From NCBI RefSeq assembly GCF_016026235.1, contig NZ_CP065613.1: DNA of 64,000 nt; one strand, 5' to 3'. Every line of letters starts with the position of its first letter. The first letter of the stretch is position 1. Position numbers and translations under genes: made by a program. Positions 4,529 through 26,916 of this stretch are shown piece after piece. The DNA comes from Escherichia coli (GTDB lineage: Bacteria > Pseudomonadota > Gammaproteobacteria > Enterobacterales > Enterobacteriaceae). The notes under the pieces were generated by a model that did no database searches, had not been told where the DNA came from, and saw nothing but the letters and a program-made list of their open reading frames with translations.

Positions 4529-5902
4529 TTAACTCCGCTTATACAGCGGCAACCAAATCACCAGCCGTAAACCGCCCAGCGGGCTGTCTTCTGCTTTAAC
4601 CCAGCCACGATGCTGCTGAATGGCGGTTTCAACAATCGCCAGCCCCAATCCTGTACCGCCAGATTCACGATCGCGTGCTTCATCGGTCCGATAGAACGGA
4701 CGGAAAATCTGTTCGCGATCTTCCGGGCTAACGCCAGGACCATCGTCGTCCACCGTAATGGTGATACCGTCTTTATCTACCGCAAAGCCCACTTCAATCT
4801 TCGTATGGGAATAACGCAGAGCATTACGAACAATGTTTTCCAGCGCACTTTCCAGGGCGTTCGGATTGCCGTACAGCGGCCACGGCCCAGGCGGGAAGTT
4901 AACTGTCAACGACTTGCCCATTTGCTCGGCTTCGAACGCCGCGTTATCCAGCACTTCACTCCACAACTGGTTGGCTTTGATGGTTTCGCTAACCAGCGCG
5001 TTTTTTTGCTGATTACGTGACATCACCAACAGATCGTTGATCATGCTGTCCAGACGTTGCGCTTCGGTTTCAATACGCTCCAGTTCCTTGCTTTCACCGC
5101 TACGACGGCGCAGTAACGCCGTACCCAGTTGCAGACGCGTCAGCGGGGTGCGCAGCTCGTGAGAGATATCAGAAAGCAGACGCTGCTGAGAGGTCATCAT
5201 GCGCTCCAGCGCGGTGACCATCTGGTTAAAACTGGCACCTGCGGCAAGGAATTCCTGTGGCCCCGCTTCCAGTTCCGGGTGCTGGCGTAAGTTTCCCTGG
5301 GCAACTTCATCGGCAGCGTTTTTCAGCTTACGCGCCGGTTTTGCCAGACTCCAGGCCAACCACAACAGCAGCGGCGTACTGACCAACATGGTGACAATCA
5401 GCAGTAATAGCGGGCGGTCAAACAGTAAGTTAATGAAATCGGATTGAGAACTGCTGGCCGGACGAATCAGATAAAGTTGGTAATTATCTTCGCCATCACG
5501 CACGGAGAACGGACCGACCAGTTCCACGCGGCCATACTTTTTCTTCTGCGGATGATCGGCGTTATCGGCCTGACCAATAAAGTTACGAATGATCTGCATT
5601 TCGCTGCGTTCAGCGCCGATCACGCGGCCTTCGGTGGTCACCAATAACAAACGCTGTCCTGGCGGTGCCCACTTATCAATCGCCCGGAACAGACGCCGCC
5701 ACCACATTAAATCGTTGGGCGGATCGTTCGCCAGCTCCGCTTCAACATGCTGCTCAATCATCAGCCCCTGACGCTGTTCGCTATCCAGAAGCTCGGTCAT
5801 CTGGCGTGAATCGAGCTTGGGTAACATCAAAACCAACATCAACACCAGCGCCAGCGTCAGCCAGAAGATGGCGAAGATGCGCGCGGTTAAGCTGCCTATC
5901 AT
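4529..5902 (-). CDS. cpxA: Envelope-stress sensor histidine kinase CpxA
   Basis: 457-aa ORF; TM segments, HAMP and histidine kinase motifs; overlaps cpxR by 4 bp. Confidence 0.96.
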   Translation of the reverse strand: MIGSLTARIFAIFWLTLALVLMLVLMLPKLDSRQMTELLDSEQRQGLMIEQHVEAELANDPPNDLMWWRRLFRAIDKWAPPGQRLLLVTTEGRVIGAERSEMQIIRNFIGQADNADHPQKKKYGRVELVGPFSVRDGEDNYQLYLIRPASSSQSDFINLLFDRPLLLLIVTMLVSTPLLLWLAWSLAKPARKLKNAADEVAQGNLRQHPELEAGPQEFLAAGASFNQMVTALERMMTSQQRLLSDISHELRTPLTRLQLGTALLRRRSGESKELERIETEAQRLDSMINDLLVMSRNQQKNALVSETIKANQLWSEVLDNAAFEAEQMGKSLTVNFPPGPWPLYGNPNALESALENIVRNALRYSHTKIEVGFAVDKDGITITVDDDGPGVSPEDREQIFRPFYRTDEARDRESGGTGLGLAIVETAIQQHRGWVKAEDSPLGGLRLVIWLPLYKRS

Positions 5903-6597
5903 GAAGCAGAAACCATCAGGTAGCCGCGACCACGCAAGGTTTTAAACCACGGGTGACCATCTTTACGATCCGGCAGTTTACGACGCAGGTTGGAAATGTG
6001 CATATCGATAGCGCGGTCGAAAGGCGTCAGGCGTTTGCCCAGCACTTCCTGGCTTAAATGTTCACGGGAAACCACCTGACCCAGATGCTGTGCCAGCAAA
6101 TAGAGCAGGGTAAACTCAGTACCGGTTAACTCCAGCGTTTGCCCGTCGAAGCTGGCTTCCTGACGGCCTGGATTCAGCACTAAGGCATCAACTTCCAGTG
6201 TCGGTGAACCGTTGTCGTTGTTTTGCTGTTGCTCGCTCCAGTGCGAACGGCGCAGGATCGCGCGAATACGTGCCACCAGCTCACGATCATTAAACGGTTT
6301 CGGGAGATAGTCATCTGCGCCCAGCTCAAGGCCGAGAACGCGATCAAGTTCACTGCCGCGCGCCGTCAACATAATGACAGGCGTCTGGTGTGTCTGGCGA
6401 AGTGCTTTTAATGTGTCGATACCATTTTTCTTCGGCATCATTACGTCAAGCAAAAGTAAATCAATGCTGTCGTCCAGAAGATCAAGCGCCTGTTCCCCAT
6501 CGTGGGCAACAATCACGTTGAAGCCTTCCATCTCGAGCAGCTCCTTTAATAGGGAAGTCAGCTCTCGGTCATCATCAACTAACAGGATTTTATTCAT
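5899..6597 (-). CDS. cpxR: OmpR-family response regulator CpxR
   Basis: 232-aa ORF; receiver domain (MNKILLVDDD...) plus winged-helix C-terminus. Confidence 0.96.
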   Translation of the reverse strand: MNKILLVDDDRELTSLLKELLEMEGFNVIVAHDGEQALDLLDDSIDLLLLDVMMPKKNGIDTLKALRQTHQTPVIMLTARGSELDRVLGLELGADDYLPKPFNDRELVARIRAILRRSHWSEQQQNNDNGSPTLEVDALVLNPGRQEASFDGQTLELTGTEFTLLYLLAQHLGQVVSREHLSQEVLGKRLTPFDRAIDMHISNLRRKLPDRKDGHPWFKTLRGRGYLMVSAS

Positions 6598-6652
6598 TGT
6601 TTAAATACCTCCGAGGCAGAAATTACGTCATCAGACGTCGCTAATCCATGAC

Positions 6653-6667
6653 TTTACGTTGTTTTAC
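6653..6667 (-). promoter_or_regulatory. CpxR box in divergent cpxRA / cpxP promoter region
   Basis: Bottom strand reads gtaaaacaacgtaaa, i.e. GTAAA-N5-GTAAA. Confidence 0.7.
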
Positions 6668-6746
6668 ACCCCCTGACGCATGTTTGCAGCCTGAATCGTA
6701 AACTCTCTATCGTTGAATCGCGACAGAAAGATTTTGGGAGCAAATG

Positions 6747-9497: not shown

Positions 9498-9595
9498 GCC
9501 TGATGCGCTTCGCTTATCAGGCCTACGTGAATTCTGCAATTTATTGAATTTACAAACTTTTGTAGGCCGGATAAGGCGTTCGCGCCTCATCCGGC
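9498..9595. repeat. BIME: two inverted REP elements
   Basis: gcctgatgcgcttcgcttatcaggcctac ... gtaggccggataaggcgttcgcgcctcatccggc. Confidence 0.85.
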
Positions 9596-9760
9596 ATCGA
9601 TAAAGCGCACTTTGTCAGCAATATGAGGCGGATTTCTTCCGCCTTTTTAACCCCTCAACATATACCCGCAAGTTATAGCCAATCTTTTTTTATTCTTTAA
9701 TGTTTGGTTAACCTTCTGGCACGCTTTGCTCATCACAACACAACATAAGAGAGTCGGGCG

Positions 9761-10750
9761 ATGAACAAGTGGGGCGTAGGGTTAACATTTTTGCTGGCGG
9801 CAACCAGCGTTATGGCAAAGGATATTCAGCTTCTTAACGTTTCATATGATCCAACGCGCGAATTGTACGAACAGTACAACAAGGCATTCAGCGCCCACTG
9901 GAAACAGCAAACTGGCGATAACGTGGTGATTCGTCAGTCACACGGTGGTTCAGGCAAACAAGCGACGTCGGTAATCAACGGTATTGAAGCTGATGTTGTC
10001 ACGCTGGCTCTGGCCTATGACGTGGACGCGATTGCGGAACGCGGGCGGATTGATAAAGAGTGGATCAAACGTCTGCCGGATAACTCCGCACCGTACACTT
10101 CCACCATTGTTTTCCTGGTGCGTAAGGGCAATCCGAAGCAGATCCATGACTGGAACGATCTGATTAAACCGGGTGTTTCAGTGATCACGCCTAATCCGAA
10201 AAGCTCTGGTGGCGCGCGCTGGAATTACCTGGCTGCCTGGGGCTACGCGCTGCATCACAACAACAACGATCAGGCAAAAGCACAGGATTTTGTTCGGGCA
10301 CTGTATAAAAACGTCGAAGTTCTGGATTCTGGCGCGCGCGGCTCCACTAATACCTTTGTCGAGCGCGGGATTGGCGATGTACTGATCGCCTGGGAAAACG
10401 AAGCTCTGCTGGCAGCGAATGAACTGGGGAAAGATAAATTCGAAATCGTCACGCCGAGTGAGTCTATCCTCGCAGAGCCAACCGTGTCGGTGGTCGATAA
10501 AGTGGTCGAGAAAAAAGGCACCAAAGAGGTGGCGGAAGCCTACCTGAAATATCTCTACTCGCCAGAAGGTCAGGAAATTGCCGCGAAAAACTACTACCGT
10601 CCGCGCGACGCTGAAGTAGCGAAAAAGTACGAAAATGCGTTTCCAAAGCTGAAGTTATTCACCATTGATGAAGAGTTCGGCGGCTGGACGAAAGCGCAAA
10701 AAGAGCATTTTGCTAACGGCGGTACGTTCGATCAGATCAGCAAACGCTGA
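9761..10750 (+). CDS. sbp: Periplasmic sulfate-binding protein
   Basis: 329-aa ORF with signal peptide; matches Sbp. Confidence 0.94.
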
Positions 10751-10856: not shown

Positions 10857-11612
10857 ATGAAAAAAGCGGGTCTTCTTTTTTTGGTGATGATAGTTATCGC
10901 CGTTGTGGCTGCCGGTATTGGTTACTGGAAATTAACCGGTGAAGAGTCGGATACATTACGTAAGATTGTCCTTGAGGAATGTTTGCCCAATCAGCAGCAA
11001 AATCAAAATCCTTCGCCATGTGCGGAAGTCAAACCCAATGCCGGATACGTGGTTTTAAAAGATCTTAATGGTCCACTGCAATATCTGTTGATGCCAACGT
11101 ATCGTATTAACGGTACTGAAAGTCCTTTGTTGACCGATCCTTCAACGCCGAACTTCTTTTGGTTGGCCTGGCAGGCGCGTGATTTTATGGGCAAAAAATA
11201 CGGCCAGCCGGTTCCCGATCGCGCGGTTTCTTTGGCGATCAACTCCCGCACCGGGCGTACGCAAAACCATTTTCATATTCATATCTCTTGTATTCGTCCT
11301 GATGTGCGCGAACAACTGGATAAAAATCTGGCGAACATCAGCAGCCGCTGGTTGCCACTGCCAGGTGGTTTGCGCGGGCATGAATACCTGGCGCGTCGGG
11401 TAACGGAAAGCGAACTGGTACAACGCAGCCCATTTATGATGCTTGCAGAAGAAGTGCCTGAAGCGCGGGAACATATGGGAAGCTACGGGCTGGCGATGGT
11501 ACGGCAGAGTGATAATTCGTTTGTGTTGCTGGCGACACAACGAAATCTACTGACGCTGAACCGTGCTTCAGCCGAGGAAATTCAGGATCATCAGTGTGAG
11601 ATTTTGCGTTAA
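10857..11612 (+). CDS. cdh: CDP-diacylglycerol pyrophosphatase
   Basis: ORF track 10665..11612; start at ATG 10857 ([25 protein letters not shown]...) giving 251 aa. Confidence 0.92.
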
Positions 11613-11666
11613 GGCGAAGAGTTAAGGAAAGTAAGTGCCGGATATGAAATCCGGCACCTGTCAGAC

Positions 11667-12434
11667 TTAAGCCTGTTTAGCCGCTTCTGCAGCTTTAACG
11701 ATTACTGCGAAGGCGTCAGCTTTCAGAGAAGCACCACCAACCAGCGCGCCGTCGATATCCGGCTGAGCGAACAGTTCTGCAGCATTAGAAGCATTTACAG
11801 AACCGCCGTACTGAATGATCACTTGTTCAGCGATGTTAGCGTCAACTTTAGCGATGTGGTCACGAATGAATTTGTGAACAGCCTGTGCCTGAGCCGGAGT
11901 TGCAGATTTGCCAGTACCGATTGCCCATACAGGTTCGTAAGCGATAACCGCACCTTCGAATGCCGCAGCACCCTGAGTTTTCAGTACCGCGTCGATCTGA
12001 CGTGCGCAAACTTCTTCAGTTTTGCCCGCTTCGTTTTCAGCTTCGGTTTCACCGATGCACAGAACCGGAGTCAGGCCCTGCTCTTTCAGCACCGCGAATT
12101 TTTTCGCGATCAGTTCGTCAGATTCTTTGTGGTAAGTACGACGTTCAGAGTGACCGATGATGATGTACTGTGCGCCGATGTCTTTCAGCATAGCAGCAGA
12201 GGTTTCACCGGTGAATGCGCCGGACAGGTTCAGGTCCACGTTTTGCGCACCCAGCATGATGTGGCTGCCTTCAGCTTCACGCTTCGCCATATCGATGTAC
12301 ATTTCCGGTGGTGCGATTGCAACCGCACAGCCAGCAACACCTGCCAGCTCTTTACGCAGGTTAGAAACCAGCTCGTGAACCATGTGGCGGCTGCCGTTCA
12401 GTTTCCAGTTACCCATCACTAAAGGATGTCGCAT
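11667..12434 (-). CDS. tpiA: Triosephosphate isomerase
   Basis: 255-aa ORF ([15 protein letters not shown]...). Confidence 0.97.
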
Positions 12435-12541
12435 TTTAATTCTCCACGCTTATAAGCGAATAAAGGAAGATGGCCGCCCCGCAGGGCAGCAGGTCTGTGA
12501 AACAGTATAGAGATTCATCGGCACAAAGGCTTTGCTTTTTG

Positions 12542-13141
12542 TCATTTATTCAAACCTTCAAGCGATTCAGATAGCGCCAGCTTAATCGGTTCAACAGCGA
12601 AGGTCAGCCCCTTTTCGCCGTTGTCCGCGACAACATAACGCAGTGCACCTTCTGTCTCGGTGTAATAACGTTTGTTTTTCCCCGCCGTTAGCAGCGACTG
12701 CAGTTTTTTCTGGCTTTGTGTTTTGGTCATTAATGGGGTGAGTGTGCGGATCACTGCTGCCATGTATTCCTGAGCTTTCGCTTTCGCTGCTTTTTGCTCT
12801 GGCCCCTGGATGGGTAGCCAGGTCATTTGAATGCTTTTGATTTTTAAGGTACCGCGCTCCAGCGCTGTAGAAGCATACAAGTTCTCGTTAATTTTACTTG
12901 CAGCACGAGTGAGATTGGCTTTGTCGGGACTGCTGTCGATGGCACGAAATTCGTTCAGTGGCAGGCTAGGATTCTGGCTGTTAAAGTCTTCTCGAAACTG
13001 GCTGATGGAGAGATCGAAAGTAGGGGCTCCAGCCAGCAGATAAGGCGCGGTCGTTGCCGTATCTGGTGTTTGTGCATGCGCCGTTGTTGTAACGGTTAAT
13101 GCAGAACATAAGAGAAAAAACAGCGTACACCCTGGCTTCAT
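12542..13141 (-). CDS. yiiQ: Secreted DUF1454-family protein YiiQ
   Basis: 199-aa ORF with N-terminal signal peptide. Confidence 0.88.
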   Translation of the reverse strand: MKPGCTLFFLLCSALTVTTTAHAQTPDTATTAPYLLAGAPTFDLSISQFREDFNSQNPSLPLNEFRAIDSSPDKANLTRAASKINENLYASTALERGTLKIKSIQMTWLPIQGPEQKAAKAKAQEYMAAVIRTLTPLMTKTQSQKKLQSLLTAGKNKRYYTETEGALRYVVADNGEKGLTFAVEPIKLALSESLEGLNK

Positions 13142-13241
13142 TGACAGTACCTTTTGTTATGACTGGCTCCGATTAAAACGATATCTGTCGCCCTTGTCAA
13201 AAGGGTAGAATCCTGGAAAAGACAACCATCAAGGAACTTAC

Positions 13242-13682
13242 ATGACCATACAGCAATGGTTATTCTCATTTAAAGGGCGTATTGGACGCCGTGATTTCTG
13301 GATTTGGATAGGCCTGTGGTTAGCAGGCATGCTGGTGCTTTTCTCACTGGCGGGTAAAAATTTACTCGATATTCAGACCGCGGCGTTTTGCCTGGTGTGC
13401 TTGCTTTGGCCAACAGCGGCAGTAACCGTTAAGCGCTTGCATGATCGCGGGCGTTCCGGCGCATGGGCATTTTTGATGATTGTGGCGTGGATGCTGCTGG
13501 CGGGTAACTGGGCGATTTTACCGGGTGTCTGGCAATGGGCGGTGGGGCGTTTTGTCCCGACGTTGATTTTGGTGATGATGCTTATCGATCTTGGTGCGTT
13601 TGTTGGCACACAAGGCGAAAATAAATATGGTAAAGATACCCAGGATGTGAAGTATAAAGCCGACAATAAATCAAGTAATTAA
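13242..13682 (+). CDS. yiiR: DUF805-family inner membrane protein YiiR
   Basis: 146-aa hydrophobic ORF. Confidence 0.88.
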   Translation: MTIQQWLFSFKGRIGRRDFWIWIGLWLAGMLVLFSLAGKNLLDIQTAAFCLVCLLWPTAAVTVKRLHDRGRSGAWAFLMIVAWMLLAGNWAILPGVWQWAVGRFVPTLILVMMLIDLGAFVGTQGENKYGKDTQDVKYKADNKSSN

Positions 13683-13893
13683 CCTTTAATATATCTCTTA
13701 CTGCTATTTTTTTCCGGGATTGTTATTTCCACGATGCAAATGACAATACCCGGAAAATCCTTCTGAACTCTTCACCTTAAGCAATATCAAAAAAAATGGT
13801 AATCCATAAGATCATTACTTGTTTGTTCTTCCCTTAACGGCGCATTATTCTTAAGTCGTAATCGACAGAGAGGCGAATATACAGAGGTGCCCT

Positions 13894-14193
13894 ATGAAAG
13901 ATGTCGTAGATAAATGCAGTACTAAAGGATGTGCGATTGATATCGGTACGGTGATTGATAACGACAACTGTACCAGTAAGTTTTCGCGCTTTTTTGCCAC
14001 CCGCGAAGAAGCAGAGTCTTTTATGACCAAACTGAAAGAGCTTGCCGCCGCTGCATCCTCTGCAGATGAAGGGGCCAGCGTGGCCTATAAGATTAAGGAT
14101 CTGGAGGGGCAAGTTGAGCTTGATGCGGCCTTCACTTTCTCATGCCAGGCCGAGATGATTATTTTTGAGTTATCACTGCGTTCGTTAGCTTGA
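13894..14193 (+). CDS. yiiS: UPF0381 protein YiiS
   Basis: 99-aa ORF with RBS; conserved position before uspD. Confidence 0.85.
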
Positions 14194-14219
14194 TGGAGTT
14201 GCTTTAGAAGGAGTTAAAC

Positions 14220-14648
14220 ATGGCTTATAAACACATTGGCGTGGCAATTTCCGGGAATGAAGAAGATGCCTTACTGGTGAATAAAGCCCTGGAGCTCGCC
14301 AGACATAATGACGCTCACCTGACGTTAATTCATATTGATGATGGCTTAAGCGAGTTGTATCCGGGTATCTACTTCCCTGCAACAGAAGATATTCTTCAAT
14401 TGTTGAAGAATAAGTCGGATAACAAGCTGTATAAACTGACGAAAAATATTCAATGGCCGAAGACAAAACTGCGTATTGAACGCGGAGAAATGCCGGAAAC
14501 ACTGCTGGAAATTATGCAAAAAGAGCAGTGCGACCTCCTTGTCTGTGGTCATCACCACTCATTTATCAACCGTTTGATGCCGGCATATCGCGGGATGATC
14601 AATAAGATGAGTGCGGATTTGCTCATCGTACCGTTTATCGATAAGTAA
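14220..14648 (+). CDS. uspD: Universal stress protein D
   Basis: 142-aa ORF; UspA-family fold features. Confidence 0.92.
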
Positions 14649-14652
14649 CCGC

Positions 14653-15399
14653 TTACCAGTAATGCTCCGCTGTCATATAGCCCGGTCGGCGACGTAAATG
14701 TTTCGTCATCTGCCGGGTCTCTTTTAGCAACTGTTGTGTATCGCGCACCATCTGTGGATTGCCGCACAGCATCACATGGCTGGTTTCTTTATTCATCGGC
14801 AGGCCAACCGCGCTTTCCAGTTCACCACTTTCAATTAACGCTGGTATCCGCCCGGTGAGTGACCCCGCCGCCGTTTCCCGACTGACCACCGTCTGAATGC
14901 GCAGTTTCCCTTCGTAGCGTTTTTCCAGTTCTTGCATCAGTGGCAAATAGCTTAAGTCGGCGGCATAACGTGCGGCGTGAACCAGGACCAGATTTTTGAA
15001 GCGATCTAAATCTTTGCCTAGTTGTAGAATCGATAAATAAGGGCCAATCGCTGTACCGGTTGCCAGCATCCATAGCGTTTCGCAATCTGGTACTTCATCC
15101 AGAACAAAGAAGCCAGCTGCTTCGCTAACCACCTGCACTTCATCGCCCGGTTTCAGTGCCGCCAATCGTGGGCTTAATTTGCCATCGGGGACGGTGACCA
15201 GGTAAAACTCCAGATCAGGATTATCGGGCGAGTTAACATAGGAGTAGGCGCGCTGGACGCGTTCGCCGTCAATTTCAAGGCCAAGTTTAGTAAATTGCCC
15301 GGCGGTAAACGGATGCACAGGGGCGTGAACGGTGAGACTAAACAGGGCGTCGGTCCAGTTCTGCACTTTAGTGACTTTGCCTGTTACCCAATCAGCCAT
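14653..15399 (-). CDS. fpr: Ferredoxin/flavodoxin-NADP+ reductase
   Basis: 248-aa ORF (MADWVTGKVTKVQNWTDALFSL...). Confidence 0.95.
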   Translation of the reverse strand: MADWVTGKVTKVQNWTDALFSLTVHAPVHPFTAGQFTKLGLEIDGERVQRAYSYVNSPDNPDLEFYLVTVPDGKLSPRLAALKPGDEVQVVSEAAGFFVLDEVPDCETLWMLATGTAIGPYLSILQLGKDLDRFKNLVLVHAARYAADLSYLPLMQELEKRYEGKLRIQTVVSRETAAGSLTGRIPALIESGELESAVGLPMNKETSHVMLCGNPQMVRDTQQLLKETRQMTKHLRRRPGYMTAEHYW

Positions 15400-15446
15400 G
15401 TTTTTCTCCTGTTTTGATTGACTTGCCTTATCTTCGTTCTCCGAAC

Positions 15447-15475
15447 AAAAAAATTCCAGTCCCGAAGGACTGGAA
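15447..15475 (-). terminator. glpX intrinsic terminator
   Basis: Hairpin ttccagtcc-cgaa-ggactggaa preceded on the top strand by a 7-A run (U-tract on the minus-strand transcript). Confidence 0.8.
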
Positions 15476-15495
15476 GGCTCAATCGATCAAATCAA

Positions 15496-16506
15496 TCAGA
15501 GGATGTGCACCTGCATTTCCGGGTCTTTGCGATCCAGGTAGTGGATGGACTGAATGCGGCGAATGGTGCGTGACTTGCCGCGGATCAGCAGCGTTTCGGT
15601 AGTCGCGATATTGCCTTTGCGGCTAATGCCTTCCAGCAGATCGCCTTTGGTAATACCGGTGGCAGAGAAGATGACGTTATCGCTGCGCGCCATATCGCCC
15701 AGACGCAATACTTTACCGGCTTCGATGCCCATCGCTTTGCAGCGTGCCAGCTCCTGCTCGCCAATGCGACGATTCTCTTCGTTGTCGCCTTTGACGTCAT
15801 GACGCGCCAGCAGACGACCGTTCATGTCGCCATCTAATGCGCGGATCACCGCCGCAGAAACCACGCCTTCCGGCGCGCCACCAATACCGTACAGCACGTC
15901 AACTTCGCTGTCTGGCATACAGGTGAGAATTGAGGCCGCAACGTCGCCATCCGGAATAGCAAATACGCGTACGCCGAGTTGCTGCATTTCAGCGATAACG
16001 GCATCGTGGCGTGGTTTAGCCAGAATCGTTACCGTCAGTTCGCTCAACGGTTTGCCGAGCGCCGCCGCGACATTGCGCAGGTTATCCGCCAGCGGCAGGT
16101 TCAGATCAATGGTGCCTTTGGCTCCCGGTCCGACGATCAGCTTCTCCATATACATATCTGGCGCGTTGAGGAAACAGCCTTTATCGCCTACTGCCAGCAC
16201 CGCCAGCGCGTTAGCCTGACCCATCGCCGTCATGCGCGTGCCTTCAATCGGATCAACAGCAATATCTACTGCGTCGCCGCGACCGGTACCGACTTTTTCA
16301 CCAATGTAGAGCATCGGTGCTTCGTCGATTTCACCTTCACCAATGACGATGGTGCCGTCAATGTTGACCTGGTTGAGCATAATACGCATGGCGTTTACCG
16401 CCGCGCCGTCCGCGGTGTTTTTATCGCCGCGTCCTAACCATTTGTAGCCAGCCAGCGCCGCTGATTCGGTGACGCGGGAAAATTCGATGGCAAGTTCTCG
16501 TCTCAT
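15496..16506 (-). CDS. glpX: Fructose-1,6-bisphosphatase class II
   Basis: 336-aa ORF (MRRELAIEFSRVTESAALAGYKWLGRGDKN...). Confidence 0.96.
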   Translation of the reverse strand: MRRELAIEFSRVTESAALAGYKWLGRGDKNTADGAAVNAMRIMLNQVNIDGTIVIGEGEIDEAPMLYIGEKVGTGRGDAVDIAVDPIEGTRMTAMGQANALAVLAVGDKGCFLNAPDMYMEKLIVGPGAKGTIDLNLPLADNLRNVAAALGKPLSELTVTILAKPRHDAVIAEMQQLGVRVFAIPDGDVAASILTCMPDSEVDVLYGIGGAPEGVVSAAVIRALDGDMNGRLLARHDVKGDNEENRRIGEQELARCKAMGIEAGKVLRLGDMARSDNVIFSATGITKGDLLEGISRKGNIATTETLLIRGKSRTIRRIQSIHYLDRKDPEMQVHIL

Positions 16507-16612
16507 AGCAAACTCTAAGCAGTAAGGAATGGCGCGAAGTGTAGCACAGGGGAAGGGAGGGATTATTGATGTGTGCGGGGTTGCCCCCGCACGGTTTCAG
16601 AGTCTGCGTGAT

Positions 16613-16700
16613 GCCGGATGCGGCGTGAACGCCTTATCCCGCCTACACAAAATGGCATTGGCTCGTAGGCCTGATAAGACGCGTAAGCGTCGCATCAGGC
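16613..16700. repeat. BIME: two inverted REP elements
   Basis: gccggatgcggcgtgaacgccttatcccgcctac ... gtaggcctgataagacgcgtaagcgtcgcatcaggc. Confidence 0.85.
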
Positions 16701-16735
16701 GAGCAGCATCAGGCAATCGATTCAGGTGCCTGACA

Positions 16736-19112
<2,377 letters not shown>

Positions 19113-19290
19113 AATCGGATCCTGAAGAGTTAATGTTTGTTGTATGCGTGAAAGTCACGGACCTCCACGATGCTTGTAGGCATGCTGTAAACTTATCGTT
19201 AACGAGCAAAAACGAGAAATATCGAACTTAAAATGTGTGTGCTTCGTCATAAAATGAGCGTTATCGCGCCATTTATTCCATCTGATTGTA
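19113..19290 (-). promoter_or_regulatory. glpFK promoter / GlpR-CRP control region
   Basis: Sequence upstream of glpF matches the glpFK control region as recalled (tcgttaacgataagtttacagcatgcctacaagcatcgtgg on the minus strand); individual operators not delimited. Confidence 0.5.
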
Positions 19291-19474
19291 CATGATGCAT
19301 GTTTGTTAGATCATTCGCGCAACAAATTTATTAACATTTTCGATTGATGTGGATTATGTCACCAGGAGAAGGATGAAAAGTGTGGCAAACCGTAATCTGC
19401 AAGGCGTGCCGCTGGACAGCGATGGCGCGGCTTCATACAATCGGAGCTAACTAAAGTGCGCTCGTATTTATTAA

Positions 19475-19783
<309 letters not shown>

Positions 19784-19797
19784 TCTCTTCCATGCAG

Positions 19798-19823
19798 AGG
19801 CGCCGCAAGGCGCCTTATTTTTT
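19798..19823 (+). terminator. zapB intrinsic terminator
   Basis: Hairpin aggcgcc-gcaa-ggcgcct then tattttttac. Confidence 0.85.
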
Positions 19824-20538
19824 ACTTCACTGTATTTTTAGCAGACAACATAATCTCCATCGCCTGTTGGCGATATTTATCTGCCGTATCTGGCTCCATT
19901 AATGCAATGATCCCCACAGCCCTGGGGGTGTCTTCAAGATAAACACTGATGGTTCTTTTCTGCTGACCATCAAAATTTATCAACACATCCTGATACTTAC
20001 AGGTGAAATGTTTGGCATTACAATCATGAAACTGGAAGGTTTCTTCATTGTATTGATCCTTGAGATTGTCTCGCTGCATCTTCTTTAACTCTTCCAGCGA
20101 GTCATCGGCGCTACGTCCTGCGGGCAGGCGGAAAGCAGAAATAAAGACGCTATTATCTTCACTTCTTATATCAATGGTTTTATCAGTACTAATAGAAACC
20201 GTATTCCAGTGTCGGTTTGGGACAGTCACGGAAATAGCTGCCTTCTCAAACGTATAGTGCCACGGGGTGAACAGACGAAACGTATTGCCGACGTTGGATA
20301 AAAGCAGGACTCCCAATACCCAACAGCACCCGCGAGTAAAACTGGCGAAGTTACGCGTTTTTTTAGTGAATGTGCACAGAATACCTGACACAAGCACGGG
20401 AAGTAATAACGGCCCAAGAAGTACTGAACCGATATACTCGCCAACCATCCCAGGATCTCCAGTAAGCAAGTTACTGTGCTGAAGATGACTAAGAAAAATG
20501 GTTATTATCCATAGTATTAATAAGATAACGTATCTCAT
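19822..20538 (-). CDS. Uncharacterised integral membrane protein, islet paralog B (3 predicted TM helices plus ~150-aa C-terminal domain with CX6C pair)
   Basis: 238-aa ORF; hydrophobic segments near residues 3-18, 34-56, 70-84; about one-third identical to the upstream ORF; AT-rich; not part of the K-12 gene order as recalled. Confidence 0.75.
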   Translation of the reverse strand: MRYVILLILWIITIFLSHLQHSNLLTGDPGMVGEYIGSVLLGPLLLPVLVSGILCTFTKKTRNFASFTRGCCWVLGVLLLSNVGNTFRLFTPWHYTFEKAAISVTVPNRHWNTVSISTDKTIDIRSEDNSVFISAFRLPAGRSADDSLEELKKMQRDNLKDQYNEETFQFHDCNAKHFTCKYQDVLINFDGQQKRTISVYLEDTPRAVGIIALMEPDTADKYRQQAMEIMLSAKNTVK

Positions 20539-20570
20539 ATCAATCCATTATTATTAACATGCACATCAGA

Positions 20571-21257
20571 TCATTGACGAGCAGAAAGCATCATTTTCAT
20601 TACTTCTTCTTGATATTCGTCCAAATAATCTGGGTCGATAGCTGCGACCAGTTGTATCAAATTAGTGTTATCCAGTAGAGTCATGAAAATAGCATGTCTT
20701 ACTTTGCCATCACTCATTGTTTGCACTCCTTCCTGATAAGCGCAGGCAAATCCCTGAACATCACAAACATGCATTTCTGCAGTTCCGTTTTGAGTCGCGG
20801 TAAGTTCCTCGATTGAATGCACACCGAGTTCATTTTGTGAGAAGGCAACAATAGCTAAAATAGCATGGGCATCCCGGGTCACCAGGGTTGGTCCTTGTTT
20901 TACTATATTGGCAACCCACTGTTTGCTCGGAACCGTGACGGTGATACCTGGCTCCGGGAAAGTATAATCCCATATGCTGTGTCGTTCCCACACCGTATAG
21001 CTGCTATAGATAAGAAATAATCCCATTAACCAACAAGTGCCGCGAATAAAGCTGCGGCTGCTTCTTTTTTTTATCGTTATACAGATTATTGTGGCGATAA
21101 TAAATGATAAGGCAAGTGGGTTAAAAAATACGTTAGCAAAATATAAAATCATTTCACCCGCGTTGCCAGATAAAAGAAATTTGTAGCGGAAATGGTTAAC
21201 GGCTATAAGTAATAAATATATAAATAAAAGAATAATATTCTGCATGAATACGTCCAT
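20571..21257 (-). CDS. Uncharacterised integral membrane protein, islet paralog A (3 predicted TM helices plus ~150-aa C-terminal domain with CX6C pair)
   Basis: 228-aa ORF; alternative start at ATG 21245 (MQNIILL...) has a slightly better GGA spacer; paralogous to 19822..20538; AT-rich. Confidence 0.75.
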   Translation of the reverse strand: MDVFMQNIILLFIYLLLIAVNHFRYKFLLSGNAGEMILYFANVFFNPLALSFIIATIICITIKKRSSRSFIRGTCWLMGLFLIYSSYTVWERHSIWDYTFPEPGITVTVPSKQWVANIVKQGPTLVTRDAHAILAIVAFSQNELGVHSIEELTATQNGTAEMHVCDVQGFACAYQEGVQTMSDGKVRHAIFMTLLDNTNLIQLVAAIDPDYLDEYQEEVMKMMLSARQ

Positions 21258-21263
21258 GTATAA

Positions 21264-21288
21264 AAAAGGGGAATTTAATTCCCCTTTT
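21264..21288 (-). terminator. rraA intrinsic terminator (bidirectional hairpin)
   Basis: Perfect 11-bp stem aaaaggggaat-tta-attcccctttt; on the minus-strand transcript it is followed by a U-tract. Confidence 0.8.
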
Positions 21289-21304
21289 AACGCATGGCAG
21301 ATAC

Positions 21305-21790
21305 TTATTCAATATCCAGCGGATCTTCTGAAAGAATAATCCCGGTATTGTCGGCATAAAGATGGTCGCCGGAGAAGAAGGTAACACCGCCAAAATTGAC
21401 GCGGACATCGCTTTCGCCAATGCCTTCGCCAGCGGCACCAACCGGAATTGCCGCCATCGCCTGGATGCCGATATCCAACTCTTCCAGGTCATCTACCTGA
21501 CGCACCGCGCCGTAAATGACCAGACCTTCCCATTCATTTTGTACTGCCAGACGCGCCAGTTCAGCATCGACCAGTGCGCGACGAACAGAACCACCGCCAT
21601 CGACGACAAGAACACGACCACGGCCATTCTGTTCGAGCAGATCGTACAGCAACCCGTTGTCCTCGAAACATTTTACCGTGATTATTTGTCCGCCAAACGA
21701 CGCCCGTCCGCCAAAGTTGGAGAACAGCGGTTCCACGACGTTAACATCTTCTTGATAGATGTCACAAAGCTCGGAAGTATCGTATTTCAT
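21305..21790 (-). CDS. rraA: RNase E inhibitor RraA
   Basis: 161-aa ORF ([28 protein letters not shown]...). Confidence 0.95.
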
Positions 21791-21882
21791 AGGCTTAACA
21801 TTCAGTTGCTGCGAGAATTTTCAGTATATCGCGCTATGTGGTCTGTTGGCAAAATCATCAATTGTTAATTGATATTTGTCAG

Positions 21883-22809
21883 TTATGCTGCCCACTGGCT
21901 TAGGAATATCCCTACAACAAACAGCAGGTTAGTCAGTAACGCTCCCTTGACAGTGCGTTCCAGCATCGGTCGCATCGCCACCGGGTCCATTTCCCGCATC
22001 ACATAACGGGCTTGCTTCACCAGCAACGGTGCCGCCAGCAGGAACAGCCAGCCCCACAGGCTATGCAGCGAAAAGAGATTAAACAGCGCCAGACATACCA
22101 GAGAGCCCATCAGCAGGCAGGCATGATAACGACGCGCGTTCACTTCACCTAAGCGCACCACCAGCGTGTTTTTGCCGTTTTCGCGGTCGCTATTGATATC
22201 ACGCAGGTTATTAATGTTCAGTACTGCCGTTGCCAGCAGGCCGCATGCGGTCGCCGGAAGGATCAGTGCCGGAATCAATGTATGAGCCTGTAAATACCAG
22301 CTCCCCATGACGCTTAACCAGCCAAAGAAAACCAGTACGGAAATATCACCCAGACCGATATAACCATAAGGACGATTGCCCACGGTGTAGGTGATAGCGG
22401 CAATGATCGACAACCCGCCAAGAATCAGGAAACCGACAAAATCAGCCAGCGTATGGCATGCCACTGCAACCAGTGCCAGCCCGGAGAGACAGATGAGCAC
22501 GACGGTAATAATGAGCGCCCGTTTCATCTCTTGCTGGGTAATGACCCCTTTTTGCATGCCGCGTAGCGGCCCAATGCGGTCAGGTTTATCGCTGCCTTTT
22601 ACTGCATCGCCGTAATCATTGGCGAGGTTAGAAAGGATCTGTAATAGCCCGGCGGTAATCAGTGCCAGCAGGGCGACCAGCGGATCGAAGTGACCTTGCC
22701 ACCATGCCAGCGCTGTCCCGACGATAATTGCAGCAAAGGCGAGGGGGAGGGTTTTAGGTCGTAAACTTTCCAGCCACGCCTGAGTTCGGCTAATTTGTTG
22801 TTCAGTCAT
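21883..22809 (-). CDS. menA: 1,4-dihydroxy-2-naphthoate octaprenyltransferase
   Basis: ORF track 21883..22821; start at ATG 22809 (MTEQQISRTQAWLESLRPKTLPLAF...) giving 308 aa; UbiA-family polytopic protein. Confidence 0.93.
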   Translation of the reverse strand: MTEQQISRTQAWLESLRPKTLPLAFAAIIVGTALAWWQGHFDPLVALLALITAGLLQILSNLANDYGDAVKGSDKPDRIGPLRGMQKGVITQQEMKRALIITVVLICLSGLALVAVACHTLADFVGFLILGGLSIIAAITYTVGNRPYGYIGLGDISVLVFFGWLSVMGSWYLQAHTLIPALILPATACGLLATAVLNINNLRDINSDRENGKNTLVVRLGEVNARRYHACLLMGSLVCLALFNLFSLHSLWGWLFLLAAPLLVKQARYVMREMDPVAMRPMLERTVKGALLTNLLFVVGIFLSQWAA

Positions 22810-22875
22810 AATACGCGCCAATAAAAATGGGGCCTTTCAGCCCCATCAAACAATGATGAAAATGATTGAACGCGA

Positions 22876-24207
22876 TTATAGGATAAAACGGCTCAGATCT
22901 TCATCTGCCACCAACGCATCCAGATGTTTGCTCACATAATCTGCGTCAATAGTGATATTTTGACCGCTTAAATCGCTGGCGTCGTAGGAAATCTCTTCCA
23001 TTAAACGCTCCAGAACAGTGTGTAAACGACGAGCACCGATGTTTTCGGTAGATTCGTTCACCTGCCATGCCGCTTCCGCGATGCGTTTAATACCGGAGTC
23101 GGTAAACTCGATATTTACGCCTTCAGTCGCCATCAGTGCTTTGTACTGCACGGTGATAGAGGCATTCGGCTCGGTCAGAATACGCTCGAAGTCGCTGGTG
23201 GTCAGCGCCTGCAGTTCAACGCGGATTGGCAGACGACCTTGCAGTTCCGGGATCAGGTCAGACGGTTTCGCAATCTGGAACGCGCCAGAAGCGATAAACA
23301 GAATGTGGTCAGTTTTGACCATCCCGTGTTTGGTGGAAACGGTGCAACCTTCTACCAGCGGCAGCAGGTCACGCTGAACACCTTCACGAGAAACATCCGG
23401 ACCGGAAGACTCGCCGCGCTTACAGATTTTGTCGATTTCGTCGATAAACACGATCCCGTGCTGCTCAACAGCGTCGATAGCGTCTTGCTTCAGCTCTTCC
23501 GGGTTCACCAGTTTCGCCGCTTCTTCTTCAATCAGCAGCTTCATGGCGTCTTTGATTTTCAGCTTACGCGCTTTTTGCTTCTGACCGCCCAGGTTCTGGA
23601 ACATGGACTGCAGCTGGCTGGTCATCTCTTCCATGCCCGGAGGAGCCATAATTTCAACGCCCATCGGTGCTGCGGCAAGATCGATCTCGATTTCTTTGTC
23701 ATCAAGCTGGCCTTCACGCAGTTTTTTGCGGAATGCCTGACGAGCAGCGGACGGTTCCTGCTGCTGTTCGGTCTGTCCCCAGTTGTTTTTAGCCGGTGGG
23801 ATCAGCACGTCGAGAATACGTTCTTCTGCCAGTTCTTCAGCGCGATAACGGTTTTTCTCGATAGCCTGGACGCGTACCATTTTTACGGCGGCATCGGTCA
23901 GATCGCGAATAATAGAATCCACTTCCTTACCGACGTAGCCCACTTCGGTGAATTTGGTCGCTTCAACTTTGATGAACGGCGCATTCGCCAGCTTAGCCAG
24001 ACGACGGGCGATTTCAGTTTTACCGACACCGGTCGGGCCGATCATCAGGATATTTTTCGGGGTCACTTCATGGCGCAGCTCTTCGTTGAGCTGCATGCGA
24101 CGCCAGCGGTTACGCAGAGCAATCGCCACAGAACGCTTGGCGTTGTCCTGGCCGATGATGTGCTTATCCAGTTCGCTGACGATTTCGCGTGGGGTCATTT
24201 CAGACAT
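22876..24207 (-). CDS. hslU: ATP-dependent protease ATPase subunit HslU
   Basis: 443-aa ORF; Walker A GPTGVGKT. Confidence 0.97.
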
Positions 24208-24216
24208 GGGAGATCC

Positions 24217-24747
24217 TTACGCTTTGTAGCTTAATTCTTCGATGGTGTGGAAATGGTTGGTATAGATGCAAATGTCGCCTGCAATATCCAACGCCTTTTC
24301 AGCAATTTCACGGGCGCTAAGTTCAGTGTTTTCTAACAGCGCGCGCGCCGCAGCCTGGGCGTAAGGGCCGCCGGAGCCGATAGCAATAAGATCGTTTTCT
24401 GGCTGCACCACGTCACCGTTACCGGTGATGATAAGCGATGCAGTTTCATCCGCGACTGCCAGCAGTGCTTCAAGTTTGCGCAGCATGCGATCGGTACGCC
24501 AGTCTTTTGCCAGCTCAACGGCGGCTTTAACCAGATGGCCCTGATGCATTTCCAGTTTACGTTCAAACAGTTCGAACAGCGTAAAAGCATCCGCAGTACC
24601 GCCCGCAAAGCCCGCGATGACTTTGTCGTTGTACAGACGGCGGACCTTTTTCACGTTGCCTTTCATTACGGTATTGCCCAACGTGGCCTGACCATCACCA
24701 GCGATGACCACATGGCCGTTACGGCGTACGCTTACTATAGTTGTCAC
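24217..24747 (-). CDS. hslV: ATP-dependent protease subunit HslV
   Basis: 176-aa ORF ([31 protein letters not shown]...). Confidence 0.97.
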
Positions 24748-24816
24748 GAGCTGACCCCTTGGTTACGAATACAGAGTACAAACCCCGTACAAAAGTACGG
24801 GGCATAATGCAATTAT

Positions 24817-24843
24817 AGATGGGGGGGATTTTGAGGGTTTCAA
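24817..24843 (-). promoter_or_regulatory. Sigma-32 heat-shock promoter of hslVU
   Basis: Minus strand reads TTGAAA-ccctcaaaatccc-CCCCATCTA, matching the sigma-32 -35/-10 consensus; the -35 overlaps the ftsN stop codon. Confidence 0.7.
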
Positions 24844-25799
24844 CCCCCGGCGGCGAGCCGAATGCAGTTTGTATGACCCGCCATCTTCAACCGATTGAGG
24901 GTGCTGTCTGCGTTCTCTTTGCCTTTCACCGGGCCAATGACCACACGATTCCAGCCATTGTTGGTGGTAATTTTTGAGTCAAAGCCTTCGAACGCCAGCT
25001 GAGCACGTACCGTCTCTGCCTGTTCCGCGCCTCTGAACGAACCGCACTGCACCATCCAGCGGCGTTCGTCTTTTTTCTCCGCCGTCGGTTTTGGCGCGTC
25101 AGCGGCACGAGTAACCGGCGCAGCTTGCTGCGGCTTCGACTGCGCGGTCGTGTGCGCAGGGGTTTGCAGCAGATCCTGGTACGGCTGCTGAGTAGAAGCC
25201 GGTTTAGACTGGCGCGGTTGCGCTTGTACCGGCGCGGCTTGCGACGTACGCGTCTGCTGCTGCCAGCTTTGTTCAGTCGTACGCGACTGCTGAGCCAGGC
25301 GTTGCTGTTCCGCTAATTGCTGCGCCTGACGTTGGCGCTGTAGCGTTTGCTGACGCTGTTCCGGCGTCTGTTCATTCCACGGAACCTCAACCAGCTGCGT
25401 TGGCTGCTGGCGCATATCAGCCTGCATTTGTTCAAGAAGCTGACGTTGTTCTGGTGTCAGTTGCTCCGGCGTTTTCACTTCACCACCAGCAGAAGGTTCT
25501 GTGGGCGCACGCACACCCGGCTGGCGACTTTCCAGCTCTTTGATGTAGCGCCAGCGTTCTTCTGGTTTTGGTGGTAGTCCGTTTCCGGTCACTTTCTGGC
25601 TTTGCAGCGTCTCGGACTCTTCTTTCTTGTGATGCGTAATGAAGTACAGACCACCGATAAAGGTCACAAGAACGGCGGCAGCAATAGCGACCATAGCGGG
25701 AGAAACCGCAGGCAGATTTCGTTGCTTTTTCCGTGAGGTGCTCTTTTTTCGCCGCGAAGGTGCCGGTTGGCTGCGGCGTACATAATCTCGTTGTGCCAC
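24840..25799 (-). CDS. ftsN: Divisome protein FtsN (SPOR domain)
   Basis: 319-aa ORF; N-terminal TM segment, Gln/Pro-rich linker, C-terminal SPOR domain. Confidence 0.95.
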   Translation of the reverse strand: MAQRDYVRRSQPAPSRRKKSTSRKKQRNLPAVSPAMVAIAAAVLVTFIGGLYFITHHKKEESETLQSQKVTGNGLPPKPEERWRYIKELESRQPGVRAPTEPSAGGEVKTPEQLTPEQRQLLEQMQADMRQQPTQLVEVPWNEQTPEQRQQTLQRQRQAQQLAEQQRLAQQSRTTEQSWQQQTRTSQAAPVQAQPRQSKPASTQQPYQDLLQTPAHTTAQSKPQQAAPVTRAADAPKPTAEKKDERRWMVQCGSFRGAEQAETVRAQLAFEGFDSKITTNNGWNRVVIGPVKGKENADSTLNRLKMAGHTNCIRLAAGG

Positions 25800-25890
25800 T
25801 ATCGTTTCGCTGTATTTATTCGTTCGTCAGCCCGCCATGTTACTTAAGCGGCGGGCCTTTGACCAGTCACGGCAGTCTTAAAGGTTTACT

Positions 25891-26916
25891 TTAAGGTAAC
25901 GCGCGTGTTGATCCCCGGATGATAAGTTCGCAGTCCATTAAACGAGAGCCACTGCCAACGTGTTGCCCCTGCATTTGATCAAGCAATAACAGCATAGCTT
26001 CCCGACCGATTTCGTAACGCGGCTGCGCGATGGTTGTCAGCGGCGGATCACAAAATTGCGTCAGGTCGATGTTATCAAAACCGATTATGGAAAGGTCTTC
26101 CGGGACTTTCAGCCCCTGGCGTTTTGCCTGAGAAAGTGCGCCGAGCGCCATCACATCGCTATGGCAGAAGACAGCAGTAGGCGGTTGTGGAAGATCAAGC
26201 AGCTGCTGCATCGCTTTGCTTCCGGCTTCGAAGGTGAAGTCGCCACGGGCGATGTATTGCGGATCAACCATAATGCCGCAGCGACGCAGCGCCTGAACGT
26301 AACCTTGCAGGCGGTAGTGACACAGCGGCATCTCTTCGGGACCGGCTATACAGCCAATCCGTTTATGCCCTTGCTCATATAAATAATTTACTGCATCAAA
26401 TGCGGCGGTCAGATTGTCGATATGAACGGTAGGCAGCTCCAGTTCCGGTGCAAATTCGTTCGCCATCACCATCGGCGGCAGATTACGCTGTTCCTCAATG
26501 CTGGCATCAAACGGCAGCCTTGAACCCAGCAGCAACATGCCATCAATTTGCTTGGTGATGATCAAATCGATAAAGGTTTTTTCCTGCTGATTTTGATGCG
26601 CACAGTCGCCTATCAGCACCAGATATCCGTGATTTGCCGCCGTAACTTCGATACCGCGAATAATTTCGCTAAAGAAGGGATCGCAGATATCCGGGACAAT
26701 CACCAGAATGGTGCGGGATTCATTACGCTTGACGTTGCGCCCCATAGGCTGCGGTAAATAACCCACTTCCCGGGCCGCTTTTTCAACCCGATTACGGGTG
26801 GCATGGGAGACTTTATCGGGATTCATTAATGCTCGGGAGACAGTCGCTGTAGAGACTTTTGCCTTGAGGGCAACGTCTTTCATGGTCGCGGCAGTTTCCT
26901 GCTTCTTCGCTTTCAC
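25891..26916 (-). CDS. cytR: LacI-family nucleoside regulon repressor CytR
   Basis: ORF track 25891..26922; annotated length 341 aa implies the GTG start at 26914-26916 (VKAKKQETAATMKDVALKAKVSTATVSRAL...). Confidence 0.9.
   Translation of the reverse strand: MKAKKQETAATMKDVALKAKVSTATVSRALMNPDKVSHATRNRVEKAAREVGYLPQPMGRNVKRNESRTILVIVPDICDPFFSEIIRGIEVTAANHGYLVLIGDCAHQNQQEKTFIDLIITKQIDGMLLLGSRLPFDASIEEQRNLPPMVMANEFAPELELPTVHIDNLTAAFDAVNYLYEQGHKRIGCIAGPEEMPLCHYRLQGYVQALRRCGIMVDPQYIARGDFTFEAGSKAMQQLLDLPQPPTAVFCHSDVMALGALSQAKRQGLKVPEDLSIIGFDNIDLTQFCDPPLTTIAQPRYEIGREAMLLLLDQMQGQHVGSGSRLMDCELIIRGSTRALP

Follow-up and report, generated by a model that had tools for sequence, protein, structure and literature searches.

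The window analysed here is a stretch of 64,000 nt from Escherichia coli (contig NZ_CP065613.1), and the element under study is a two-gene segment between zapB and rraA (the analysed interval being positions 19784–21304). It comprises two tandem ORFs on the minus strand, ORF-B followed by ORF-A, whose products belong to a single family with A-type and B-type members. Alleles that carry the segment are referred to as occupied, those with the short gap of K-12 as empty, and those retaining ORF-A without an intact ORF-B as A-only. The features of the locus, including the two hairpins (H1 and H2) that flank the ORFs, are as follows.

18267–19112, minus strand: glpF (gene call).
19538–19783, plus strand: zapB (gene call), which ends GTT-TAA in occupied alleles and GTC-TGA in empty alleles.
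19767–19795, plus strand: near-perfect palindrome of 13–14 bp centred on the zapB stop codon (GCATGGAAGAGGTT/AATCTCTTCCATGC), present in occupied alleles only.
19797–19825, plus strand: H1, predicted intrinsic terminator of zapB, AGGCGCC-GCAA-GGCGCC-TTATTTTTT, with the stem at 19797–19816 followed by the T-run.
19822–20538, minus strand: ORF-A, 238 aa, A-type family member, predicted to hold three transmembrane (TM) helices and a periplasmic PsbP/DcrB-like domain.
20539–20570, minus strand: spacer from ORF-B to ORF-A, 32 nt with GGA-N7-ATG, kept even in A-only alleles.
20571–21245, minus strand: ORF-B, 224 aa, B-type family member, with an alternative upstream ATG at 21257.
21246–21263, minus strand: Shine–Dalgarno-like stretch TGGAC/AAGGA directly after the H2 U-tract, kept in the Salmonella contig L005 and in L026.
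21264–21288, minus strand: H2, predicted intrinsic terminator of rraA, AAAAGGGGAATT-A-AATTCCCCTTTT followed by U6.
21305–21790, minus strand: rraA (gene call), stop codon TAA (occupied alleles) or TGA (empty E. coli alleles).
From 21883, minus strand: menA (gene call).

As a preliminary description of this DNA had stated, approximately 1.44 kb holding two same-strand ORFs is flanked by the convergent hairpin terminators of zapB and rraA. The remaining ORFs of the interval are of 72 aa or fewer. ORF-A and ORF-B are paralogues of one another (30 % identity, E = 4e-32). When folded, H1 reaches −16.4 kcal/mol (z = −4.2 against shuffled sequence) and H2 −20.3 kcal/mol (z = −5.0); each combines a GC-rich hairpin with a U-tract and a stability above that of shuffled sequence, as expected of the intrinsic terminators that both are predicted to be. 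The stop codon of ORF-A sits within the T-run of H1. GC content, measured over 19824–21263, is 41.0 % against 52.3 % window-wide, a value found in the lowest 0.2 % of 1440-nt sliding windows, and the interval is the sole region this AT-rich within the 64 kb. No tRNA gene lies within 15000–26000 (±5 kb of the interval), no insertion sequence (IS), transposase or integrase ORF occurs among the ORFs of the interval, and flanking direct repeats do not exceed 10–14-mers of chance size, with no scar of a target-site duplication found. Both the AT-richness and the lack of integrase, IS, tRNA or direct-repeat scar had been reported from a first reading of the sequence, and are borne out by these checks. 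A scan against Rfam (E ≤ 1) returned merely sub-threshold small RNA look-alikes over the H2 hairpin.

With regard to distribution within the species, 5,426 complete E. coli genomes were surveyed. A 2.1-kb query spanning both junctions recovered the flanks in 5,425 of the 5,426 genomes and the full segment in 658, whilst a query with the islet alone matched 679 genomes (657 over the full length). The segment is, accordingly, accessory; it is carried by about 12 % of E. coli and is lacking in K-12. Matches fall into discrete classes of about 99.7 % (≥99 %), 96.9 %, 95.3 % and 93.5 % identity. The first of these comprises O157:H7, O55:H7, O145 and relatives, and E. coli FDAARGOS_943 matches the queried 2.1 kb of the window (19500–21600) at 100 % identity; the class at ~93.5 % covers the ORF-A half only and contains roughly 20 genomes. 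Strain UMN026, of phylogroup D (O157:H7 being of phylogroup E), encodes a B-type protein, UniProt entry B7NFM7. Atypical composition is thus found together with a patchy within-species distribution, and the possibility that this is ordinary core sequence, present in K-12 and nearly all E. coli with core-like GC, does not agree with carriage of ~12 % and a GC content of 41 %. No copy exists among 72,556 plasmid and 50,697 phage records. The sole ‘plasmid’ matches, for both proteins, fall on the PLSDB entry NZ_CP141089.1, which is a mis-filed 4.94-Mb E. coli chromosome of strain KE47. A literature search with Sakai and EDL933 locus tags and RefSeq protein (WP) accessions found no paper in which the genes are discussed; of the neighbouring tags, ECs4851 (glpK) and ECs4852 (glpF) were anchored through one paper.

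Such a profile could reflect recent horizontal acquisition, in which a foreign, AT-rich two-gene cassette was inserted in some E. coli lineages by a mechanism that has left no visible trace. In its favour are the lowest GC of the window, the carriage in just about 12 % of E. coli, and the lack of any cross-junction homology to the empty site. Against it stand the integrase, tRNA and target duplication that were not found, the absence of copies from the plasmid and phage records and the behaviour of the family beyond E. coli.

An indexed search returned 11 clusters for ORF-B and 17 for ORF-A, nearly all from Escherichia, and a profile search yielded 34 cluster representatives among 1.84 billion proteins; the identifiable source organisms of the family are all Enterobacteriaceae. 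In at least six lineages, family members occupy the rraA–zapB/pfkA interval, where most of them follow rraA directly on its 3′ side; this placement holds also where pfkA replaces zapB as the downstream neighbour. In every enterobacterial context for which upstream sequence was recovered, the family gene has rraA as its closest upstream core gene; the very distant members P0045 and P0052 are located elsewhere. The arrangements recovered, with X denoting the family gene, are listed below.

Escherichia sp. MOD1-EC7003: rraA-B-A.
E. albertii type strain and E. whittamii: rraA-(260 bp)-A-zapB.
Escherichia sp. E1V33: as E. albertii, rraA-(260 bp)-A, with the locus ending inside A.
Salmonella enterica contig L005: menA-rraA-B (51 % aa)-A (39 % aa)-...-zapB-glpF, with RraA, GlpF and MenA being exact Salmonella proteins.
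L010: A-type gene adjoining zapB-glpFKX.
Kluyvera ascorbata type: rraA-X-esterase-MFS (major facilitator superfamily)-AraC-pfkA.
L027 and L028: priA-cytR-ftsN-hslVU-menA-rraA-X-pfkA.
L014 and L015 (short contigs): the rraA-X and X-pfkA halves, separately.
L026, with the remote member P0049 (profile E = 3e-8): menA-rraA-X-zapB.
L037–L039: rraA-(nlpA-like gene)-X-zapB.

Where a genus holds a single family gene, this may be of A-type or of B-type; since the type differs among genera, the duplication that produced A and B is older than these genera and was followed by differential loss. A-only alleles keep H2, a 5′ remnant of ORF-B (approximately 25 nt, with ATA in place of the start ATG) and the ribosome-binding site of ORF-A, and therefore look like decay intermediates. 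In three such alleles (L007, L008 and L023, representing E. albertii, E. whittamii and ~20 E. coli), an AT-rich filler of ~200 nt follows the ORF-B remnant.

Several of these loci display peculiarities of their own. In L005 (ERR9539427), the stretch separating zapB from the module, at about 9500–10400, contains an enterobacterial repetitive intergenic consensus (ERIC)-like element together with a transposase gene of Y1 (IS200/RAYT) type, and the A-type gene of this contig contains a GGGATAGTT tandem repeat encoding an (SQL)n insertion after TM3. In L037–L039, rraA and the family gene are separated by an oppositely oriented lipoprotein gene of the NlpA/MetQ family (4796–5614 and 6001–6717), and the family gene itself has a GC content of 33 %, with 25 % at third codon positions (GC3), adjoining an rraA of 56 % GC. 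Inserted beside fieF in L027, at 11084–16720, is the tail module of a P2-like prophage (Ogr/Delta, gpD, gpU, tape measure, tube and sheath), in the place of which L028 carries cpxP-cpxRA; the two loci are otherwise syntenic.

Divergence of the module was compared with that of its flanks using Nei–Gojobori estimates of synonymous divergence (dS) and of the non-synonymous to synonymous ratio (dN/dS).

Window against E. albertii, dS: ORF-A 0.345; rraA 0.26; zapB 0.24; glpF 0.30; menA 0.67.
Window against Salmonella, dS: ORF-B 1.47; flanking genes 0.58–1.23.

The dS of the module to E. albertii is therefore inside the flanking-gene range of 0.24–0.67. Across loci, the identity of the family gene tracks that of rraA (Spearman 0.64; as the pairs are not independent, the p-value is indicative only). 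Moreover, the terminator and the start region of the first gene are retained: an H2-type terminator followed by AAGGA/TGGAC-N7-ATG is kept in the window, in the Salmonella contig L005 and in L026, with a remnant in L027, and H2 is confined to module-bearing haplotypes. H2 and the rraA TAA are common to three E. coli classes, E. albertii, E. whittamii and Escherichia sp. MOD1, whilst H1 and the zapB TAA are common to those occupied alleles for which the junction is available, from three E. coli classes, E. albertii and E. whittamii. Occupation of the same interval in at least six lineages, divergence that scales with that of the host, a dS in keeping with that of the flanks and the preservation of H2 and the ribosome-binding site across genera all count against recent acquisition; an outgroup site that is empty, or divergence unlinked to the host, is not what was found, and neither is a mobility signature. 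Recent acquisition is consequently considered unlikely, even though the very AT-rich L037 allele and the single Salmonella occurrence hint that alleles can move. We instead favour, with a probability of roughly 0.6, the view that the zapB–rraA segment is an old presence/absence polymorphism dominated by loss. The preliminary description had proposed horizontally acquired cargo at a terminator–terminator junction, and whilst its account of an accessory, AT-rich segment devoid of mobility genes stands, H2, the synteny and dS lend no support to acquisition.

The structure of the empty site bears on the same question. The site is empty in a laboratory strain of K-12 size (4.63 Mb), in NC101 and in O111:H8, and the K-12-type zapB–rraA gap measures 84 bp, close to the ~80 bp that had been given for it. 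It had been further supposed that this gap consists of the two terminators back to back, but this is not the case: H2 is missing, both stop codons differ, and none of the five occupied alleles aligned contains an equivalent of 55 of the 84 nt. There is, therefore, no terminator–terminator junction in K-12 into which an insertion could have occurred, as K-12 is without H2. In an alignment anchored on the flanking genes, homology between occupied and empty alleles ends at the zapB and rraA stop codons. The remaining empty-gap sequence is a single bidirectional hairpin adjoining rraA, AAAAAAGGCACC-TTGC-GGTGCC-TTTCTT. Its alignment to H1 has 20 identities over 23 nt and a reversed loop (score 31, compared with a maximum of 28 in 200 shuffles), making the hairpin a diverged homologue of H1. 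Alignment to an empty site, suggested earlier as a means of finding flanking micro-homology, thus recovered the H1-like hairpin, but the empty site is not the sum of the occupied junctions.

Candidate routes from one haplotype to the other were considered and rejected. Simple deletion or simple insertion is not compatible with the anchored and local alignments of the 84-bp gap, in which the H1 hairpin alone aligned. Direct repeats of 8–9 nt (CATGCAGA/CATGGCAGA) were considered as deletion endpoints, but recombination between them removes H1 and does not yield the observed empty allele. Inversion of H1 between haplotypes was likewise dismissed: the stem, GGCGCC, reads as its own reverse complement and only the loop changes orientation, also between Salmonella strains, so that the apparent inversion is not a rearrangement. 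Amongst the S. enterica loci L029–L036, the loop of GGCGCC-NNNN-GGCGCC is mostly TTAC, with its reverse complement, GTAA, in L031 and L036. On the zapB side, the palindrome over the stop codon (−24.1 kcal/mol, z −5.4) means that the initial 12 nt 3′ of zapB in occupied alleles are an inverted copy of the final zapB codons, which suggests a fold-back or template-switch origin for this junction.

The empty form is not restricted to E. coli. The ordinary Salmonella empty site contains ERIC-like and repetitive extragenic palindromic (REP)-like elements followed by AACGCATAAAAAAGGCGCC-TTAC-GGCGCCTTTTTT adjoining rraA, and 31 of the 36 rraA-proximal nt are identical between the Salmonella and K-12 empty alleles. 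As the K-12-type junction is shared with ordinary Salmonella, the empty form does not represent a pristine pre-insertion site; and since the module is also present in Salmonella, on a contig that has K-12-type sequence immediately 3′ of zapB, both haplotypes exist in both Escherichia and Salmonella.

Taken as an old polymorphism, the locus would have the following history. Window positions 19784–21304 would be one of two old haplotypes of the zapB–rraA intergenic region. The occupied haplotype consists of the anciently duplicated ORF-B and ORF-A in tandem, oriented in the same direction as rraA and with their home position just 3′ of that gene; in the empty haplotype, which is that of most E. 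coli and of ordinary Salmonella, the module and H2 are missing and one bidirectional H1-homologous hairpin lies beside rraA. Within species, recombination in the conserved flanks would then have reshuffled the haplotypes, the direction of change being inferred. In E. coli, such recombination has evidently reshuffled occupied and empty cores, with the flanks of the two being nearly identical (dS of 0.009 for rraA and 0.005 for glpF).

A number of observations weigh against loss from an old haplotype as the whole explanation. A simple deletion or insertion converts neither E. coli haplotype into the other. The Salmonella module was seen on one contig only, and retention in Salmonella must therefore be extremely rare. 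The scan of genome contigs used narrow N-terminal peptide patterns and returned Escherichia only, such that absence elsewhere, as from E. fergusonii, Citrobacter or Klebsiella, is not to be read from it. Within E. coli, module dS (0.05–0.16) exceeds flank dS (0–0.08) and the alleles are mosaic, as exemplified by the window and L021, for which dS is 0.17 in the TM half of ORF-A and 0.012 in the periplasmic half; recombination and import must consequently also contribute. In addition, module GC (33–44 %) is lower than that of rraA (52–56 %) in every genus, with the family gene 8–22 GC points below its neighbouring rraA and a GC3 of just 25 % in allele L037, which is unexpected in a long-term resident. 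AT-biased drift under weak selection, selection for silencing and occasional allele replacement could each produce this. Finally, H2 is a strong terminator, hence read-through into the module may be very low.

The mosaicism and the contrast between flanks and cores also bring into consideration a history governed by allele exchange, in which both haplotypes are old and patchiness arises mainly from repeated homologous import via the flanks, even across species and genera, instead of from independent deletions. Flanks that are near-identical in E. coli around unalignable cores and differing stop codons would be expected from such exchange, as would mosaic alleles, the presence of both haplotypes in Escherichia and in Salmonella, and typical Salmonella flanks around the lone Salmonella module. 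However, the closest between-genus alleles share only 51–54 % aa identity, and the E. coli alleles form discrete classes, as clonal descent predicts. We regard exchange as a conceivable though rather doubtful primary cause, and it is in part compatible with, and not exclusive of, loss from an old haplotype. A more elaborate proposal is that the haplotypes constitute an ancient trans-species polymorphism, maintained in Escherichia and Salmonella alike by balancing selection, with the family gene coupled to rraA and expressed only on terminator read-through. This is improbable, but if true would link a PsbP-like, periplasm-facing membrane protein to the operon of an RNase E regulator.

Turning to the proteins, no significant match was obtained in Pfam (searched with the single proteins and with all 23 family members), NCBIfam, PADLOC or PHROGs, and a sequence profile search of the PDB returned noise only. 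An AlphaFold2 model of ORF-B (pLDDT 77.7; about 80–91 in the C-terminal domain) displays helices at residues 3–30, 33–62 and 68–93, after which comes a beta-rich domain including a C-terminal helix. Its fold relatives, with the figure obtained for each, are as follows.

Cyanobacterial PsbP: 12.9.
LpqN: 11.2.
TplEi: 10.2.
Mog1: 9.6.
PA0094: 9.5.
Tsi3: 8.8.
DcrB: 8.2.
SciW: 7.4.

The modelled domain is a superimposable alpha/beta sandwich, as would be expected of a member of the PsbP/Mog1-like superfamily. Foldseek comparison with AFDB identified, outside the family itself, ‘PsbP C-terminal’ and ‘DUF1795’ proteins and kinase sensor domains; matches within the family were to E. coli UMN026, Klebsiella oxytoca and Shigella fragments. 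Two residues are invariant amongst 23 diverse members, namely a first-strand Trp (VPxxxW) and, in a C-x6-C motif, the second Cys; the first Cys of this motif is kept in at least 90 %. Both products are predicted to be inner-membrane proteins with three N-terminal TM helices. As the loop between TM2 and TM3 is rich in Lys and Arg, the positive-inside rule would place the C-terminal domain of ~140 residues in the periplasm, a location that fits with the conserved Cys pair. They constitute a small, undescribed family inside the known PsbP/Mog1/DcrB (DUF1795) fold class.

The annotation of ORF-A deserves comment. Both ORFs are labelled ‘hypothetical’ by RefSeq/PGAP, and ORF-A is given as 209 aa from an internal Met at 20448 (MVGEY...), 29 codons late. 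The omitted codons (20449–20538, MRYVILLILW...) encode the first TM helix and are kept in all orthologues, including the 39 %-identical one from Salmonella; owing to this conservation, the annotated start looks wrong in hundreds of genomes.

Both genes are under purifying but relaxed selection, with dN/dS values of 0.11–0.55 for the module compared with 0–0.05 for the flanks. Domain-specific positive selection was considered and set aside, as changes are not concentrated in the periplasmic domain. Judged from these sequence comparisons, ORF-A and ORF-B appear to be functional, but weakly constrained and dispensable. The contrary view, that they are non-functional relics, i.e. decaying pseudogenes persisting by chance, might draw on the frequency of loss, the existence of A-only remnants, the truncation of some database members and the fusion of one, from Shigella dysenteriae, to an IS, and the constraint that is relaxed relative to the flanks. 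Nevertheless, the full-length reading frames of both ORFs are intact from Escherichia to Salmonella despite saturated dS, dN/dS is 0.1–0.55, and the invariant Trp, conserved Cys pair and confident fold prediction all speak against decay, making this the least probable of the explanations considered.

With regard to function, tandem paralogy and fast protein evolution might suggest a part in immunity or defence, with the pair serving as orphan proteins against periplasm-acting toxins of the type VI secretion system (T6SS), other interbacterial toxins or phage, and the polymorphism driven by conflict. The fold is shared by DcrB, a protein linked to phage adsorption. However, toxin, T6SS, Rhs or contact-dependent inhibition (CDI) genes were not seen in the enterobacterial contexts recovered, a lone DUF4225 neighbour being found at the remote P0045; rraA-linked neighbours in Enterobacteriaceae are instead rraA, zapB, pfkA, an esterase–MFS–AraC cluster and an nlpA-like gene. 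PADLOC and PHROG searches without a match, a stable synteny with a housekeeping gene that is atypical for immunity genes, dN/dS below 1 and a periplasmic domain not enriched in changes point the same way, and the fold itself is generic, recurring in PsbP, in Mog1, in LpqN and in the sensor domains of kinases. Immunity or defence is accordingly an unlikely role. The most likely putative role is one in the envelope, as a dispensable binding or scaffold protein facing the periplasm, with a PsbP/DcrB-like binding module that would be presented there by inner-membrane proteins, possibly as an A:B pair.

Expression of the module would be closely tied to its position. The ribosome-binding site and ATG of ORF-B begin 4–12 nt past the H2 U-tract. 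Promoter prediction on the minus strand gave no sigma-70-like candidate in the stretch separating the rraA coding region from ORF-B, where the Shine–Dalgarno-like stretch at 21246–21263 leaves a promoter no space. Because H2 abuts the ribosome-binding site, read-through from rraA or menA–rraA, or a start inside rraA or H2, seems the most likely source of transcripts, which would be at a low level relative to RraA. The spacer at 20539–20570 probably permits co-transcription of ORF-B and then ORF-A.

The locus serves as an example that AT-rich DNA absent from K-12 need not be foreign, as here it would be an old resident lost by most strains. What is new is a tiny unannotated family in O157:H7/O55:H7-type and UMN026-type E. 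coli, E. albertii and a few other genera, along with an apparent start-codon error that RefSeq repeats systematically and that costs ORF-A its first TM helix. Furthermore, the direct contact of terminator and ribosome-binding site 3′ of rraA is conserved and provides a concrete case of a gene possibly dependent on read-through. Unless a function is found, the current view of E. coli biology is unchanged, and the segment is an ordinary piece of the accessory genome.

In comparison with known systems, the closest genomic parallel is with the O-islands of E. coli O157:H7. These are small, strain-specific segments absent from K-12, known from EDL933 and Sakai comparisons, and the segment resembles them as a K-12-absent, AT-rich stretch of hypothetical proteins in O157:H7 and O55:H7. 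Unlike O-islands, it would reflect differential loss of an old haplotype and not lineage-specific gain, since it is syntenic in other Escherichia species and genera. At the protein level, the family differs from DcrB/DUF1795 (PF08786) in having no significant HMM (hidden Markov model) match (none at E ≤ 10), in the use of three TM helices as an anchor instead of a lipobox lipid anchor (there being no Cys in the first 50 residues), and in its own conserved C-x6-C and rraA-linked locus. Similarity to PsbP (PF01789) is sub-threshold, with a best i-Evalue of 3.4e-3 in one of the 23 members and the window proteins unmatched; in contrast to PsbP and the bacterial ‘PsbP C-terminal domain’ proteins, the hosts are non-photosynthetic and a three-TM anchor has been added. 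Finally, the T6SS immunity proteins TplEi/Tli4 and Tsi3 show no sequence similarity to the family, which, with no cognate effector or T6SS neighbourhood in the loci examined, is set apart from them by its retained synteny with rraA.

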